Under the pieces are notes generated by a model. That model worked only from the letters and a program-made list of their open reading frames with translations, was not told where the DNA came from and did not search any database. Source: a virus (taxonomy: Duplodnaviria > Caudoviricetes). From it: a stretch of 64,000 bases of DNA. Both the position numbers and the translations under genes were made by a program. This document shows, in pieces, positions 3,038-11,357 of this stretch. The stretch lies in IMG/VR virus record IMGVR_UViG_3300037851_000141, positions 192,001 to 256,000 of that record, one strand, 5' to 3'. Numbering within the stretch: position 1 is the stretch's first letter; every line of letters begins with the position of its first letter.

Positions 3038-3565
3038 ATGGTCCCTTTTCAACAACCTGATCAAAAACAGGCTATGATTAATGAACGAATCTCAGCCAGA
3101 GAAGTCTTATTAATCTCTTCAACCGGCGAGAAGCTTGGAATAATAAATACCAAGGAAGCACTACAAAAAGCAAAAAATGATGGTTTAGATTTGGTTCTTG
3201 TAGCCGAAACATCTAAGCCACCAGTTTGTAAAATAATGGATTATAACAAACTTATTTACGAACAAAAGAAACGCGAAAAGAAAAATGAATCACATGGTAA
3301 AGTCGAGATAAAAGAACTCCGTTTCGGCATCTGTATTCAAGACCATGATCTACAAATTAAGGCTAAACAAGCAAAAGAATTCTTGGAAAAGGGTTGGAGA
3401 GTCAAGTTATCAGTTCAATTCTCTGGTCGCGAAAAACAACATCCCGAATTAGGTATTGATGTCCTAAATCGTTTTATCAAGTTTGTTGGCGAAGATAAAT
3501 CAAAATTCGAGAACCAACCAAGACTTGAGGGACGATACATGAATACATACTTGCTCAAAAAATAA
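3038..3565 (+). CDS. infC: Translation initiation factor IF-3
   Basis: INERISAREVLLI, LDLVLVAETSKPPVCKIMDY, KELRFG..HDLQIKAKQAKEFLEKG..VKLSVQFSGRE, PRLEGRYM. Confidence 0.95.
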   Translation: MVPFQQPDQKQAMINERISAREVLLISSTGEKLGIINTKEALQKAKNDGLDLVLVAETSKPPVCKIMDYNKLIYEQKKREKKNESHGKVEIKELRFGICIQDHDLQIKAKQAKEFLEKGWRVKLSVQFSGREKQHPELGIDVLNRFIKFVGEDKSKFENQPRLEGRYMNTYLLKK

Positions 3566-4930: not shown

Positions 4931-5722
4931 ATGGACATGCACTTTCAATCCGTAGTCGTAACTCTCGTTGGAGCCGACAATAAACCCTTTAGGGAATATG
5001 ATCCACACCAAGTAGAAAATGGCAGACGTTGTAATCTGATTATGCCATTTGATACTGAATATAAGGTTTTCGTTAAGAATCTCGCAGACCGTAGAATTAA
5101 ACTTGATATTGAAGTTGATGGAACTAATGTATCAGGTAAAGGTCTTATTATTGGTTCTAAAGAAAATGCCTATATTGAACGATTTGTTGATGCGGCTCGT
5201 AAATTCAAGTTTGTAAAGGCTCAAGGTGCTGGCGCAAACCCAAATGTAGCCGATCCAACAAGTCCTGAAAATGGTATAGTGAAAATCCGAGTAGCCAAAG
5301 AGAAACAAGCTACATTAAATTGGAATTATTATTACAATCAGCCTTCAATATGGACTTCCCCAATAAATCCATATCCACTAAATCCAGAAATTATTTGTTA
5401 TGGGTCACAGTCAAATCCGACAGGAACACCAATATCATGTTCATATAAAGGTGGTGCTGGAGATAATATAAAACGAGGGTTCAGCACCAAATCAATGAGT
5501 TTTAGTAGTTTGGCATCTGCTGAGACACAACCAAAGACTGATGTTGGTGCTACTGTAGAAGGTAATAATAGTGGTCAATCTTTCGGCACAACTTACTGGA
5601 ATGGTGATGACGGAGATTCAATGGTATTTACGTTTTATGTTCGTGGCGTCGAGAATGGAATAACACCAGAAGAACAACGTCAATATGAAGAATACCTGCG
5701 TCTCAAAGAAAAATTTGGTTGA
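4931..5722 (+). CDS. Hypothetical protein
   Basis: 263-aa ORF with AAGGAAGG RBS; no recognisable catalytic motif. Confidence 0.7.
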   Translation: MDMHFQSVVVTLVGADNKPFREYDPHQVENGRRCNLIMPFDTEYKVFVKNLADRRIKLDIEVDGTNVSGKGLIIGSKENAYIERFVDAARKFKFVKAQGAGANPNVADPTSPENGIVKIRVAKEKQATLNWNYYYNQPSIWTSPINPYPLNPEIICYGSQSNPTGTPISCSYKGGAGDNIKRGFSTKSMSFSSLASAETQPKTDVGATVEGNNSGQSFGTTYWNGDDGDSMVFTFYVRGVENGITPEEQRQYEEYLRLKEKFG

Positions 5723-5746
5723 CAAATAGAAAAATGTTGGTAAAAT
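5719..5746 (+). promoter_or_regulatory. Sigma70-type promoter upstream of tRNA cluster
   Basis: TTGACA (5719-5724), 16-nt spacer, TAAAAT (5741-5746). Confidence 0.6.
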
Positions 5747-5790
5747 AGGGGCGTATCAGATATAAATCACTTGGTACGCCTCTTTTACAT

Positions 5791-5907
5791 GCTGGTTTAG
5801 CTCAGGGGTAGAGCAGTTGTTTTGCTGGAATATAGGAAAGCAAGACGGTTCGAGTCCGTCATTCTGGAATAAACAACAGGTCGGGGGTTCAAATCCCTCA
5901 ACCAGCA
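5791..5907 (+). tRNA. tRNA-Thr(UGU) with 45-nt insertion (5825-5869) inside the anticodon; no encoded CCA
   Basis: Acceptor GCTGGTT/AACCAGC+A, D-arm GCTC/GAGC, anticodon stem GTTGT/ACAAC, T-arm GGGGG-TTCAAAT-CCCTC. Removing the insert gives loop TT-TGT-AA. Confidence 0.85.
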
Positions 5908-5921
5908 TTATAAATAATACT

Positions 5922-6260
5922 ATGAACATAAACCATATCTTTGACAACTTTATAGAAACTGGAAAAATGAGTGTTGATGATGCTAAATTGTTTCTTGACC
6001 AAATCTTAGAGTTCACCAAAGGTCAAGAATTTACAAGTGTCATTGATGTTTATTCTTTTTTAGTTGAACATGGTTTGGTTGAAGATAAACTAAAATTCCA
6101 TGAGCCAACTAAAAGAATGTATCTTGATTCGTCTAAAGCACATAAGGTAATAAGATTCTTTAAGTCATTGGATCTTATTGAATATACAGACGAAGATTTT
6201 GAGGACTTCAAGAAAAAAGTACTTGACTCTGAAACATCTCTTGGTAAAATACTACCATGA
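5922..6260 (+). CDS. Hypothetical protein (true start 5922; the longer track ORF runs through the tRNA)
   Basis: TATAAATA at 5909-5916 immediately upstream of ATG. Confidence 0.65.
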   Translation: MNINHIFDNFIETGKMSVDDAKLFLDQILEFTKGQEFTSVIDVYSFLVEHGLVEDKLKFHEPTKRMYLDSSKAHKVIRFFKSLDLIEYTDEDFEDFKKKVLDSETSLGKILP

Positions 6261-6698: not shown

Positions 6699-6776
6699 GC
6701 TCTCATCGTCTAGCCCGGTTAGGACATTTGGTTTTCATCCAAAAAACGTGGAGTTCAAATCTCCCTGAGAGTACCA
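6699..6776 (+). tRNA. tRNA-Glu(UUC)
   Basis: GCTCTCA/TGAGAGT, TTTGG-TTTTCAT-CCAAA, TTCAAAT T-loop, encoded ACCA. Confidence 0.9.
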
Positions 6777-6778
6777 AT

Positions 6779-6841
6779 GAAGCGAATGCAGATAAGATTA
6801 CATTCTGGAAAAAATAAAATCTTATCAAATTTTGTCGCTTC
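6779..6841 (+). ncRNA. Structured repeat element copy 3
   Basis: GAAGCGA/TCGCTTC, GATAAGATT/AATCTTATC. Confidence 0.65.
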
Positions 6842-6847
6842 TTATAT

Positions 6848-6953
6848 GCTGCGTTGACAGATCGGTTATGTGCTAGCCTTCCCGAGAAAAGGAGCCTAAA
6901 GCTTTAATTCTCGACCAAAGCTAGAAAGGCGGGTTCGATTCCCGCACGCGGCT
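6848..6953 (+). tRNA. tRNA-Gly(UCC) with 35-nt insertion (6883-6917) after the anticodon; no encoded CCA
   Basis: GCTGCGT/ACGCGGC+U73, anticodon stem CTAGC/GCTAG, GCGGG-TTCGATT-CCCGC. Removing the insert gives CT-TCC-AA. Confidence 0.85.
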
Positions 6954-7026: not shown

Positions 7027-8343
7027 TTAGTTATCAACTGTTATCACTTTGGTTGTTGGGTCAAGATGGACTCTAAGCTCATCTCCGTCCAGAGTATAGA
7101 AACCAGTTTCCTTCCAGTAGAAACCCTTCCTATTTAACTCTAACTTACGTAATTTGGGAGGTATGTCGGGTAAGGTCTGTTCGTGGTTGCACGACGCATT
7201 ATAGTCTGCGTCGTCAGAAAAGCCACAACCTCGACAGATGTAAATCTTACCCTTCCTATTACTCTTACGTACCAATCCGCAACAACTACACCGTTGACTT
7301 CTGTAAGTACAAGACTGTAAAGTGAAGTGGACCCCAGCCTCTTCACAGCGGCTACTTACTTTGTCTCTGATGAGTGTGTTTGTCCAGTGGGACATCTTAC
7401 GACTCGTTCTACGACCATAGTTTATGTTATTTATCTCTTCCAACTTTAGATGCTTGATGTTCATTAAGTTTAGTTGGTTGACTGACCAATTAATGAAGTT
7501 CTCACGGTGAGATTGGGCTTTAAGGAAGGCTCGACTTCCTTTACGTTTGGCACTCAATTTATCTATAATAGAATCTAATGAGTGTCCATGAGAGTCTGTC
7601 TTTGGTGTTGTTTGTCTGTCCGACAACGATATTATTGTCAATTTACCTTGGTCAGCACCAACATCAACACCTTTGGTCTTAGGTGGAACATCTTTTTCCC
7701 ACCGTAGATTTACGAAGTTGGTTCCGATGAGGAACGAGTTGAGCATCTTCCAATCAGCATATTTTGAGTTATGTTTGTGGAATCTTATAGGTAGTTTGAT
7801 ATGACCATATTCATCACCGATACATTTGAGTCTGAGGACTCCGTTGAAATATGATGTATTTTGGGTTGGTTCCCAATCTATACATTTGCTTGATAATTCT
7901 GGGTTGATATTACTAAGATCAGGCTTTAGAGCCTGGAATTTCTGTAGATTTTGATATAGTCTCTCATTATAAACTCCTTCATCACAGAGTTTATTGAATA
8001 CCCATAATCTTCGTCTACGGACTTCCGTAGTTGCTGATATACATCCAGCAACCTGAGTTACCAGAGAGGATAATGCTCGGGCTGATAGTGGAGTTTGAAT
8101 ACCAAACAATTTGTAATCTATGAAACTTGGAGTTTCAAGGTTATCATCTTTGATAGAGAACTGATGCTCTGTAGATACTCCAGTTTCTTTATTTGTAGTA
8201 GTCCACTTGTATCCATGTTCCCAAATAAGGTCAACTATGAGTTGCCCAACTCTACGATACTCGGCAATAAACTTGTTCAACTTGTCAAGTTTATTCTTAT
8301 TTGTATCTTTAAGAGAATGAGAAGTTGACCGTATAGTAGTCAT
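7027..8343 (-). CDS. tnpB: TnpB/Cas12f-like RNA-guided RuvC endonuclease
   Basis: VGADQG (RuvC I), KLEEIN (RuvC II), SQRCSCCG..YICRGCGFSDDADYNAS (Zn finger + RuvC III). Confidence 0.85.
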   Translation of the reverse strand: MTTIRSTSHSLKDTNKNKLDKLNKFIAEYRRVGQLIVDLIWEHGYKWTTTNKETGVSTEHQFSIKDDNLETPSFIDYKLFGIQTPLSARALSSLVTQVAGCISATTEVRRRRLWVFNKLCDEGVYNERLYQNLQKFQALKPDLSNINPELSSKCIDWEPTQNTSYFNGVLRLKCIGDEYGHIKLPIRFHKHNSKYADWKMLNSFLIGTNFVNLRWEKDVPPKTKGVDVGADQGKLTIISLSDRQTTPKTDSHGHSLDSIIDKLSAKRKGSRAFLKAQSHRENFINWSVNQLNLMNIKHLKLEEINNINYGRRTSRKMSHWTNTLIRDKVSSRCEEAGVHFTLQSCTYRSQRCSCCGLVRKSNRKGKIYICRGCGFSDDADYNASCNHEQTLPDIPPKLRKLELNRKGFYWKETGFYTLDGDELRVHLDPTTKVITVDN

Positions 8344-9857: not shown

Positions 9858-11357
9858 ATGACCTCTCAACAAATTGACCAAAAGACCAAGATTCTAAATG
9901 AAGTTTTTGGATATGAAACATTTAGAAAAGGTCAGGAAGAGATTATTGATGCTGTAATGGATGATAATAATAAAGGTGTATTGGTTGTTATGCCTACTGG
10001 CGGTGGTAAAAGTATAACATTCCAAATACCGGCGTTGATGATGAAGAATATGACTTTGGTTATTAGCCCATTGATTTCTCTAATGAAAGACCAAGTTGAC
10101 ACATTAGAGAAAAAAGGCGTCAACGTAGCCTATTATAATTCCAGCATGACGGAGAAACAAAAGAAAGAAACCATCAATAGCATACAGCTTGGAATTGTCA
10201 ATCTGTTATATGTTGCTCCAGAGAGATTTGATGATGAAAACTTTATGCTATTGGTTGAAAGTGTTGGTGTTGATTTAATAGCAATCGATGAGGCACATTG
10301 TATCTCATTCTACGGACACGATTTCCGACCATCATATCTTAGGATTCGTGAAGTTATTGAAAGATTGCGGCCTCGCCAAGTTATTGCTGTTACTGCGACT
10401 GCTCCACCCAAAGTACAAACAGATATATGCGAAAAGTTGGGTATTCCGAAGGCTAAAAAGTTTATTCGTGGTATATATCGTGATAACCTTATTATAAAGA
10501 TAAACATTTTAGATAGTGGCGGTAATTATAGGGTAAACAAGATTATAAGCAAGTTAAAGTCTTATCATGAAAATGGGATAAAGACTGGAATTGTTTATGT
10601 TGCTACACGAAAAGCAGCAGAAGGTATGCACGCCCTTTTAAAATCCAGAGGTATCGAATCTGTCGTATATCATGCTGGTTTGGAGGATAAAGAACGAACC
10701 AAAGTACAAGAAGAATGGTTCAAGAAAGGTGGTACTGTTATAGCTACTATCGCTTTCGGTATGGGAGTTGATAAAGCTGATGTAAGATTTGTTATACACG
10801 CAAATATGTCTGGAAGTATTGAAGCGTGGTCGCAGGAGTGCGGTCGTTGTGGTCGGGACGGTGAACCAGCAGTTTGTACATCATTTATTAGTCGTGGCGA
10901 AGATTATAGAACGCATATGTATTTTATTGATCTTAGTAATCCTCCGAGTGAACGAGTAAGAAAGTTTTGGTATGCTTTAAATGAGTTTGCCAGAAATAAG
11001 AAACCAAATGAAGATGAAGTTATATTGGATATGACTCAGAAAGATATGGAAGAGGCATTTGATTTTGAGAATGGAATGGTTAGTGGATGTATTGGGGTAT
11101 TAAAGAGATATCAGTTGGTTAAGACTCTTGGGCGTGGTAAATACATGGTCAAGACGTATGAAGATCCAGACCGCGCCCGTATTAACTATGCTGATATTGA
11201 TAAAAAGCGTCAAGATAAGATTGATAAGTTAAATGAGACATTGGAGTTTATGTATAATGACTCTGAGTGTAGGTTTAAGCAGATTGGTAAATATTTTGGT
11301 ATAGATGATGATATTCGTTGTAAAAAATGTGACGTATGCTTAGGGGAGGTTGAATGA
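9858..11357 (+). CDS. recQ: RecQ-family DNA helicase
   Basis: MPTGGGKS, AIDEAHCISFYGHDFRPSY, ATIAFGMGVDK, QECGRCGRDG, C-terminal Zn Cys motif. Confidence 0.95.
   Translation: MTSQQIDQKTKILNEVFGYETFRKGQEEIIDAVMDDNNKGVLVVMPTGGGKSITFQIPALMMKNMTLVISPLISLMKDQVDTLEKKGVNVAYYNSSMTEKQKKETINSIQLGIVNLLYVAPERFDDENFMLLVESVGVDLIAIDEAHCISFYGHDFRPSYLRIREVIERLRPRQVIAVTATAPPKVQTDICEKLGIPKAKKFIRGIYRDNLIIKINILDSGGNYRVNKIISKLKSYHENGIKTGIVYVATRKAAEGMHALLKSRGIESVVYHAGLEDKERTKVQEEWFKKGGTVIATIAFGMGVDKADVRFVIHANMSGSIEAWSQECGRCGRDGEPAVCTSFISRGEDYRTHMYFIDLSNPPSERVRKFWYALNEFARNKKPNEDEVILDMTQKDMEEAFDFENGMVSGCIGVLKRYQLVKTLGRGKYMVKTYEDPDRARINYADIDKKRQDKIDKLNETLEFMYNDSECRFKQIGKYFGIDDDIRCKKCDVCLGEVE

Follow-up and report, generated by a model that had tools for sequence, protein, structure and literature searches.

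A tRNA-Thr(UGU) gene of a jumbo phage interrupted in its anticodon by a miniature tRNA, and a proposed route for its splicing

Results

The interrupted tRNA-Thr gene

The stretch of DNA analyzed here (64,000 nucleotides (nt); hereafter, the window) comprises bases 192001-256000 of a 331,849-bp (base pairs) IMG/VR record (IMGVR_UViG_3300037851_000141, designated G000; 92% complete, 34.9% G+C), a 332-kb jumbo phage with about 26 tRNA genes, and the subject of this report is a tRNA-Thr(UGU) gene at positions 5791-5907 of the window, the anticodon of which is split by a short sequence that folds like the top half of a tRNA. Positions are those of the window and the plus strand unless otherwise indicated. 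The Rfam tRNA model (RF00005) matched 5791-5907 with 58.4 bits (E 2e-12; threshold, 29; model positions 1-71), the only insertion in the alignment being one of 49 nt in the anticodon loop. Exon 1 (5791-5824), as assigned from the Rfam alignment, comprises the 5' strand of the acceptor stem, the D arm, the 5' strand of the anticodon stem, and U32, U33, U34 and G35; the putative intron (5825-5869; 45 nt, CCA not encoded), a mini-tRNA corresponding to a tRNA top half, lies between G35 and U36; and exon 2 (5870-5907) comprises U36, A37 and A38, the 3' strand of the anticodon stem, the variable loop, the T arm, the 3' strand of the acceptor stem and a discriminator A, without an encoded CCA (the bases that come next are TTA). 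The identity to annotated phage tRNA-Thr genes was 88.6% for exon 1 (the 5' half) and 86.8% for exon 2. A preliminary description of this DNA had recognized a tRNA-Thr body split in the anticodon by 45 nt (5825-5869), and both the Rfam alignment and the sequence agree with it.

When the exons were joined, the computed fold was a 72-nt cloverleaf with the loop UUUGUAA and the anticodon UGU. The predicted spliced junction is ...GUUGUUUUG|UAAACAAC..., and, because the flanking bases differ, the intron boundaries cannot slide. The acceptor stem of the interrupted tRNA (GCTGGTT/AACCAGC) contains G1-C72 and C2-G71, which are identity elements for the bacterial threonyl-tRNA synthetase (ThrRS). Intronless tRNA-Thr(UGU) genes from other organisms in the same metagenomes (runs X1 and X3) read ...TTGTTTTG|TAAAC... 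across the predicted junction, and the metagenome alignments of these intronless genes show loose ends at 5824 and 5870. Two readings by ARAGORN were rejected: the default tRNA-Ser(GCU) at 5792-5868, a chimera that takes its 5' half from the outer tRNA and its T arm from the inner one (25.9 bits, under the threshold of 29), and an intron placement giving Ile(AAU).

The insert had been described as a 7-bp stem with two G-U pairs, a T arm and a GG-containing linker, that is, the top half of a tRNA, and this structure was reproduced by folding the insert alone. From 5' to 3', it consists of the 5' strand of an acceptor-like stem (5825-5831, CTGGAAT), the first base of which is at the putative 5' splice site and which pairs with 5861-5867 at seven of seven positions, including the two G-U pairs; a 12-nt linker (5832-5843, ATAGGAAAGCAA) in place of the D and anticodon arms, which contains ATAGGAA, the motif of the family described below, and the GG of which is a candidate partner of the T loop; a T arm (5844-5860; GACGG, loop TTCGAGT, CCGTC) with five of five pairs formed and a closing pair of the G53-C61 type that is invariant across the family; the 3' strand of the acceptor-like stem (5861-5867, ATTCTGG), contiguous with the T arm; and the tail AA (5868-5869), a discriminator-like A followed by one base, with the putative 3' splice site after 5869. 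C5825 pairs with G5867, and G5824 and A5868 are unable to pair. The 7 + 5 contiguous base pairs with the TTCGAGT loop form an acceptor/T-arm stack of the RNase P type; a 12-bp coaxial stack of acceptor and T arm is the minimal element recognized by RNase P, RNase Z and the CCA-adding enzyme. The folding energy of the insert alone was unexceptional (z = -0.86). Energetics alone prove nothing, and the case therefore rests on comparison with other sequences.

A family of mini-tRNAs in phages

When the whole of G000 was searched with ARAGORN in an intron-tolerant manner, homologous inserts of 46 and 48 nt were obtained in the tRNA genes at genome positions 183007-183123 and 275593-275713, and a 35-nt hairpin insert in a fourth tRNA gene (window positions 6848-6953). 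The three T-arm-type inserts of G000 have in common the motif ATAGGAA and a TTCRART loop, and their stems are wholly different yet complementary. The family was defined by a 7-bp stem, a linker of the ATAGGAA type, and a 5-bp T arm with a TTCRANT loop, the T arm being contiguous with the 3' strand of the stem; ATAGGAA was nearly invariant among 13 aligned members. A motif scan of viral contigs gave 30 stretches (27 distinct), and the perfect 7 + 5-bp arrangement was present in 12 of the 27, for which about 1e-5 per hit is expected; in the corresponding scan of prokaryote genomes, about 3 of 80 matches were structured. The mini-tRNA module is thus essentially a phage element, and a chance origin of the insert is excluded by this family evidence, not by the folding energy.

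Because MAFFT misaligned the two linker-length classes, a covariance model (R1) was built from six members of equal register, with the Thr insert included, and the covariation was counted on the positional parse. The score of the Thr insert against R1 (58.6 bits, E 3e-14) is circular, since this insert is in the training set; independent members scored 23.6-53 bits, and further copies were recovered with R1. Across 17 family members, 201 of 204 stem cells were paired (shuffle control, 116 ± 5.6), with three to six pair types per acceptor position, and the fair statistic here is the enrichment (12/27) rather than the pair percentage, because the members from the motif scan were picked for pairing. 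In the Thr insert, all 12 pairs were formed on the positional parse. Two tRNA-Gln introns, one from G000 and the other from a related phage (G001; a 113-kb IMG/VR record, 37% complete), are 76% identical and differ by three double compensatory changes. Covariation of the insert in related phage genomes, which the preliminary description had proposed as a check, was therefore found in the stems of the family.

Conservation at the locus itself was seen in a groundwater metagenome contig (run X2, record 7), which spans 5777-6218 with about 97% identity and has the Thr intron in place; as this contig is independent, an assembly artefact is ruled out. Its three substitutions in the intron (G5827>A, A5829>G and A5845>G) convert G-U to A-U or A-U to G-U, so that pairing is kept in three of three cases, and its single exon substitution (A5904>G) also keeps the pair. 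The probability that all four changes preserve pairing is about 0.02 under neutrality by a rough estimate, which is modest evidence. Lack of conservation of the inner stem in relatives had been named at the outset as an observation that would tell against an intron; the X2 relative keeps the stem, with pair-preserving changes. Searches with an exact 21-mer of the Thr intron gave no match, relatives were not found in viral contigs via the upstream 263-aa (amino acid) open reading frame (ORF) or via the CCA-adding enzyme, and a metagenome scan with a CCA-anchored motif gave only the types already seen in L016 and L025.

Sister introns and their boundaries

Eight compact introns were available for comparison: those in tRNA-Thr, tRNA-Gln, tRNA-Arg(UCU) and tRNA-Gly of G000, and those in tRNA-Gln, tRNA-Asn, tRNA-Arg(UCU) and probably tRNA-Pro of G001. 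In G001, the Gln and Asn introns are T-arm mini-tRNAs, and the Arg(UCU) and probable Pro introns are 22-nt hairpins. The tRNA-Gly(UCC) gene of G000 (6848-6953; Rfam tRNA model, 42.4 bits) has a 35-nt intron (6883-6917, after C36) that consists of stem, internal loop and stem, and ends in ACCA; its excision leaves the loop CUUCCAA, the discriminator is U73, and ARAGORN reads the gene as selenocysteine tRNA (SeC(UCA)). For the sister genes, the ARAGORN readings Pro(UGG), Trp(CCA) and SeC(UCA) were rejected, because the Pro, Trp and SeC placements would duplicate existing genes.

All eight compact introns began with base 1 of the inner helix; the coincidence of the 5' splice point with this base, first pointed out for Thr in the preliminary description, thus holds for the seven sister introns as well. 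The last four bases were N-CCA in seven of the eight (ACCA, UCCA, ACCA, GCCA, ACCA, GCCA and GCCA); the exception is Thr, in which the tail AA is followed by the exon sequence UAA. When exactly this unit is removed from the compact-intron genes, the resulting loop has in each case 7 nt, U33 and a purine at position 37, and the anticodons so formed agree with the tRNA bodies (U1-A72 for Gln, U1-A72 and G73 for Asn, U73 for Gly, and G1-C72 and C2-G71 for Thr). The interrupted genes supply Thr, Gln, Arg(UCU) and Gly(UCC), which are otherwise absent from the tRNA set of G000; no second tRNA-Thr was found in the tRNA listing of the genome. The N-CCA end is not a general habit of the genome, because CCA is encoded in only 8 of 25 tRNA genes of G000 and in none of the four interrupted genes at their own 3' end. 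The intron position varies (34/35, 35/36 or 36/37), and even the homologous Gln introns of G000 and G001 lie 1 nt apart, from which it follows that the cuts are set by the ends of the intron's own helix and not by the exons. Position N73 of the intron was a purine in seven of the eight, and U was at position -1 in five of the eight; a purine at N73, U at -1 and a 3' RCCA (R, purine) are preferences of bacterial RNase P. A new, testable regularity, read from the sequences, is that an intron of this kind has the ends of a mature mini-tRNA.

Other interrupted tRNA matches were observed in the same dataset. The 102-nt match in record G005 and the 155-nt match in record G002 (250751-250905, with an insert of about 82 nt) were not parsed into the boundary rule. 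In G001, a 12-kb stretch (L025) contains about 40 tRNA genes, a transfer-messenger RNA (tmRNA; 108.7 bits) and a match to abiF RNA (41.6 bits; 6062-6099, minus strand), as well as a tRNA-Gly-like gene with a 115-nt insert (6720-6907, minus strand).

Free-standing copies

The mini-tRNA also occurs free-standing in phage tRNA operons. One copy ends in C-CCA and lies 6 nt past the 3' end of a tRNA (L187:10819-11115), and another is found 100 nt downstream of a phage tmRNA gene (L018:6156-6585). As these copies are located alone in tRNA operons, they must be released by the normal enzymes of tRNA end processing. Two tandem mini-tRNAs about 300 nt apart are present in each of G003 and G004 (L036:1161-1547 and L035:1501-1856, respectively); these have an 8-bp stem with an extra G-C pair, are followed by ACCA-like tails and are each preceded by a conserved GTGCAT..ATAAATAAG..ATG motif, and they may be part of a larger RNA. 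Neither an Rnl1- nor an Rnl2-type ligase was found in G003 or G004.

Phage enzymes, codon usage and neighboring genes

G000 encodes an RNA ligase of the Rnl1 family (PF09511, 54.5 bits; 403-aa ORF, genome positions 302327-302971, minus strand), to which the Rnl1 of G001 is 45% identical; ligases of the Rnl2 type are also present in both phages, that of G000 lying at genome positions 283926-284489 (minus strand), and an AAA_33 kinase is encoded by the phages. RtcB, an EndA-type endonuclease (PF01974), an RNase Z of the Lactamase_B_2 family and RNase P RNA were searched for in G000 and G001, and none was found. The codons read by the interrupted tRNAs are heavily used: ACA accounts for 35% of Thr codons and CAA for 80% of Gln codons; AGA accounts for 40% of Arg, GGA for 31% of Gly and AAA for 68% of Lys codons in G000.

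A nucleotidyltransferase of the CCA-adding enzyme/poly(A) polymerase family is encoded at 639-1979 (Pfam PolyA_pol head domain, E 4.8e-23, plus an RNA-binding domain) and could supply CCA to the tRNAs, as well as to the Thr mini-tRNA, in which it is not encoded. About 45 nt upstream of the tRNA-Thr gene, a predicted sigma-70-type promoter with an extended -10 element (5719-5746; TTGACA, 16-nt spacer, TG-n-TAAAAT) was assigned by consensus match only (11 of 12 positions). Like the CCA-adding enzyme, a full-length IF3 (3038-3565) and a RecQ-like DEAD-box helicase (9858-11357) adjoin the tRNA cluster, and just downstream of the tRNA-Gly gene lies a TnpB-like ORF (438 aa; 7027-8343, minus strand; Cas12f1-like TNB domain, E 3e-11), near which no transposase was seen. 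Elsewhere in G000, the tRNA-Lys(UUU) gene (encoded CCA; genome positions 316550-316852, minus strand; L034:151-453) contains a 227-nt, ORF-less group I intron, which matched the Rfam model Intron_gpI with 49.1 bits (E 9e-11), just below the gathering score of 50.

Discussion

Comparison with known systems

The best reading of 5791-5907, which we hold with about as much belief as doubt, is a functional tRNA-Thr(UGU) gene with a protein-spliced intron that would be defined solely by its mini-tRNA shape. The nearest published counterparts are the 'enigmatic' tRNA introns of Lak megaphages (Devoto et al. 2019, Nat Microbiol; PMC6784885; preprint 10.1101/356790; Fig. 4 and Table S6). Those introns are 79-114 nt long, have no match to an Rfam intron, and include one in tRNA-Thr(UGU); alleles with and without the intron coexist, and no mechanism was proposed (PMC6784885). 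The tails listed in Table S6 of that paper (PMC6784885) are C, CA or CT(A), that is, 1-3 nt without CCA, and, when a 1-nt slide at flanking A's is allowed, the end falls at N73 for the Thr, Phe and Gly introns and at N73+1 for the Tyr intron. There is thus a precedent for the AA tail in G000 Thr, because Lak introns end at N73 or N73+1. As in Lak, an insert in the anticodon loop has a tRNA-like module that abuts the 3' splice site and is followed by a short non-CCA tail (AA in G000 Thr); unlike in Lak, the G000 Thr intron is a bare 45-nt top half with base 1 at the 5' splice site, and it is devoid of the 5' hairpin and A-rich spacer that precede the inner tRNA of Lak introns, the inner tRNA of the Lak Thr intron being nearly full-size. 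The N-CCA boundary rule is not described in the Lak paper (PMC6784885). Al-Shayeb et al. (2020) do not mention introns, and no later mechanistic study of the 'enigmatic' phage tRNA introns was found in our literature search. The preliminary description had called the splicing route undescribed: tRNA-like phage introns, one of them in tRNA-Thr(UGU), were in fact published in 2019 (PMC6784885), and what stands of that statement is that no mechanism was given there. A splicing route of this kind has yet to be demonstrated by anyone. The G000 Thr intron is a compact variant of this little-known, mechanistically unexplained kind of phage tRNA intron. We also observed an intron of the Lak type in tRNA-Leu(UAA) of G002 (345 kb; L002:6371-6536), about 79 nt long with an A-rich spacer and a mini-tRNA that ends in ..ACC|AA; its 5' hairpin, CAGAGUAAACUG, is identical to the hairpin of the Lak Phe intron.

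Other known systems resemble the present case in part. The location in the anticodon loop is shared with the group I introns of bacterial and phage tRNAs (Leu-UAA, fMet, Arg and others), but those are about 200 nt or longer and have a conserved core, a terminal G and a P1 helix with U-G at the 5' splice site, all of which are lacking in the Thr insert. With the archaeal and eukaryal splicing of tRNAs (EndA/Sen endonuclease; RtcB or Trl1 ligase), the proposed route would have in common that it is protein-only, that two cuts are followed by ligation, and that the tRNA body holds the exons; it would differ in that a tRNA-shaped intron rather than a bulge-helix-bulge (BHB) motif is recognized and that the ends are expected to be 3'-OH and 5'-phosphate rather than cyclic phosphate and 5'-OH. 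In mascRNA/MALAT1 and in tRNA-punctuated transcripts, an embedded tRNA-like module is likewise released by RNase P at the 5' side and RNase Z at the 3' side, but the flanks are not rejoined there, whereas here the outer tRNA would need their ligation; the Rfam mascRNA model gave only a trivial T-arm match on the outer tRNA (12.6 bits). The repair of PrrC-nicked tRNA-Lys by Rnl1 and Pnkp of phage T4 also involves a phage ligase of the Rnl1 family and a break in the anticodon loop, but the T4 break is host damage with cyclic-phosphate and 5'-OH ends that need healing, whereas here the break would be programmed. Finally, the 12-bp stack, together with the 3' RCCA in the sister introns, is reminiscent of the minihelix and hairpin-RCCA model substrates; unlike those laboratory constructs, the G000 element occurs naturally, is conserved and lies within another tRNA.

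Proposed splicing pathway

The Thr insert is probably a genuinely spliced intron, to judge from the comparisons above. For its removal, we propose the following pathway. The precursor would fold as a cloverleaf whose anticodon loop bears the protruding mini-tRNA. Host RNase P would then cut 5' of inner base 1 (5824|5825), so that exon 1 would end in a 3'-OH and the intron would begin with a 5'-phosphate. A tRNA 3'-end endonuclease (of the RNase Z/BN type, or one cutting at A76 like the tRNase Z of Thermotoga) would cut behind the inner acceptor stem, namely past A5869 in Thr and past the N-CCA of the sister introns, leaving a 5'-phosphate on exon 2. Note that the tRNase Z of T. maritima cuts exactly after A76 (PMC1540738). 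The exons would be held together by the outer acceptor, D, T and anticodon stems, and the nick would be sealed by the ATP-dependent phage ligase of the Rnl1 or Rnl2 type; 3'-OH and 5'-phosphate ends would need no healing before sealing by such a ligase. We give this pathway as a whole (RNase P, 3'-end endonuclease and phage ligase) roughly an even chance; splicing itself and each of the enzymatic steps are what we infer from the anatomy, the family with its covariation, the boundary rule and the ligase genes.

The preliminary description had suggested excision by ordinary tRNA-maturation nucleases followed by ligation. Excision by the enzymes of tRNA end processing predicts mature ends (base 1 and N-CCA), and the sister introns therefore support that interpretation; in its favor are the conserved module, the mature ends in the seven sisters, and Rnl1 and Rnl2, whereas Thr itself, for which it had been put forward, fits it least. 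That description had also raised, as a bare possibility, that the intron might conceal the anticodon from anticodon nucleases of the host.

Several observations weigh against the pathway, beginning with the Thr intron. It has no CCA, its -1 base is G, and the sequence at the would-be RCCA is AAUA. The trailer without CCA is as in canonical RNase Z substrates, but an RNase Z cut after N73 (A5868) would leave an 8-nt loop, and the 7-nt loop requires a cut at N73+1 (A5869). The 3-5 unpaired bases between the inner helix and the outer anticodon stem would give RNase P a tight 5' leader to act on. The nested fold of the Thr precursor (-36.9 kcal/mol) lies 4.4 kcal/mol above the computed minimum free energy (MFE) structure, in which 5817-5823 (the 5' strand of the anticodon stem, UUGUUUU) pairs with 5837-5843 of the linker (AAAGCAA); this pairing could be a competing conformer or a mere artefact of the prediction, and the nested fold is the MFE structure for the Gln, Arg and Gly precursors. 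Beyond the Thr gene, the 5' splice cut of the Lak-type introns and of the G002 Leu intron is out of reach for RNase P alone, because the hairpin and the A-rich spacer precede the inner tRNA. Of 49 other Rnl1-bearing phage records, 47 are without a mini-tRNA, R1 giving two weak matches only, and ligases are common in jumbo phages, so that the presence of a ligase is permissive and not diagnostic; moreover, because the AAA_33 kinase is present, the ends made by a different nuclease could be healed and sealed. Among the RNA runs searched for the stretch, none carries the sequence.

Alternative explanations

The last point but one leads to the explanation that the intron is real and spliced but is cut by a dedicated, still unrecognized endonuclease of the phage or the host that recognizes the helix and its tail; 5'-OH and cyclic-phosphate ends, if made, would be healed by a kinase and a phosphoesterase before sealing by Rnl1 or Rnl2. 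The phages do carry such a repair kit (AAA_33 kinase, Rnl1 and Rnl2). Furthermore, another nuclease must act on the Lak-type and G002 introns, whose 5' splice sites are not at inner base 1, and no single simple ruler gives both the 3' boundary of Thr (helix + 2 nt) and that of the sisters (helix + 4 nt). However, among the families searched (EndA, RNase Z and RtcB only), no candidate nuclease gene was found; the agreement of both intron ends with mature tRNA ends (+1 and A76) in seven of eight cases would have to be coincidence or mimicry; and the free-standing copies in tRNA operons imply that ordinary processing handles the module. We consider a dedicated endonuclease unlikely, though a real contender. 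These same free-standing copies are the starting point for another explanation, in which the exons are never ligated, the mini-tRNA being a selfish or independently useful RNA released by RNase P and RNase Z, and the Thr gene a pseudogene or carrier. Between the two tRNA-Gln genes, identity is higher in the intron (76%) than in the exons (58%), which suggests mobility or independent selection of the intron; any insertion automatically keeps the sum of the 7-nt loop; and Thr does not follow the CCA rule. Against this stand the perfect cloverleaves of all the interrupted tRNAs, including the tRNA-Gln hosts, which differ at 42% of positions with every stem compensated; the fact that for Thr, Gln, Arg(UCU) and Gly(UCC), whose codons are heavily used, the phage has no gene other than the interrupted one; the single exon change of the X2 relative, which preserves pairing; and the Lak phages, in which a tRNA-Thr that is otherwise intact is kept in alleles with and without the intron (PMC6784885). 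An insert without exon ligation is, in our estimate, quite improbable.

Catalysis by the RNA itself, through a small ribozyme or a degenerate group I or group II intron, would have a parallel in the same genome, where tRNA-Lys(UUU) has a genuine group I intron. The Thr intron is only 45 nt long, though, and sister introns are as short as 22 nt; no ribozyme or intron family of Rfam matched even at E = 10; and there is neither a terminal G nor a pairing of the P1 type, the intron ending in A and exon 1 in G. We regard self-cleavage or self-splicing as very improbable. The location in the anticodon loop and the length are typical of introns that are cut at a BHB motif by the archaeal or eukaryal type of splicing endonuclease, but here the splice sites lie at the foot of a 7-bp helix, with 4 and 5 unpaired bases between them and the anticodon stem, whereas a BHB has two 3-nt bulges separated by a 4-bp helix; the introns interrupt the loop at 34/35 to 36/37 and not at 37/38; neither the PF01974 endonuclease nor RtcB is found in the phage; and the promoters are of the bacterial sigma-70 type. 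A BHB intron is thus scarcely credible at this locus.

Conclusions

Extending the proposed pathway, one may tentatively, and with somewhat more doubt than belief, think of a fourth class of tRNA introns, in which a mature-ended (mini-)tRNA would be cut out by RNase P and a 3'-end endonuclease and the exons joined by Rnl; the excised mini-tRNA, with its CCA end either encoded or open to completion, would itself be functional, for instance as a decoy or a chargeable minihelix, and the element may spread by ligation into nicked anticodon loops.

If splicing by RNase P, a 3'-end endonuclease and a phage ligase is real, it would be a protein-dependent tRNA splicing in bacteria and phages, assembled from end-processing enzymes and a repair ligase, with RNase P as a splicing endonuclease, and phage Rnl1 and Rnl2 would gain a programmed substrate besides damage repair. 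It would account for tRNA introns considered 'enigmatic' since 2019, and would correct a systematic mis-annotation, as default finders miss or miscall such genes (Ser, Pro, Trp and SeC in the present cases); the tRNA sets of phages would then be more complete than reported. The structure-defined intron, being compact and portable, would also lend itself to the engineering of conditional tRNAs, and, as a living case of an anticodon loop that carries a tRNA top-half minihelix, it would be relevant to models of how tRNA arose. For the phage, the supply of these tRNAs would be tied to a phage enzyme, a dependence that could act as a control of timing or of self versus non-self.

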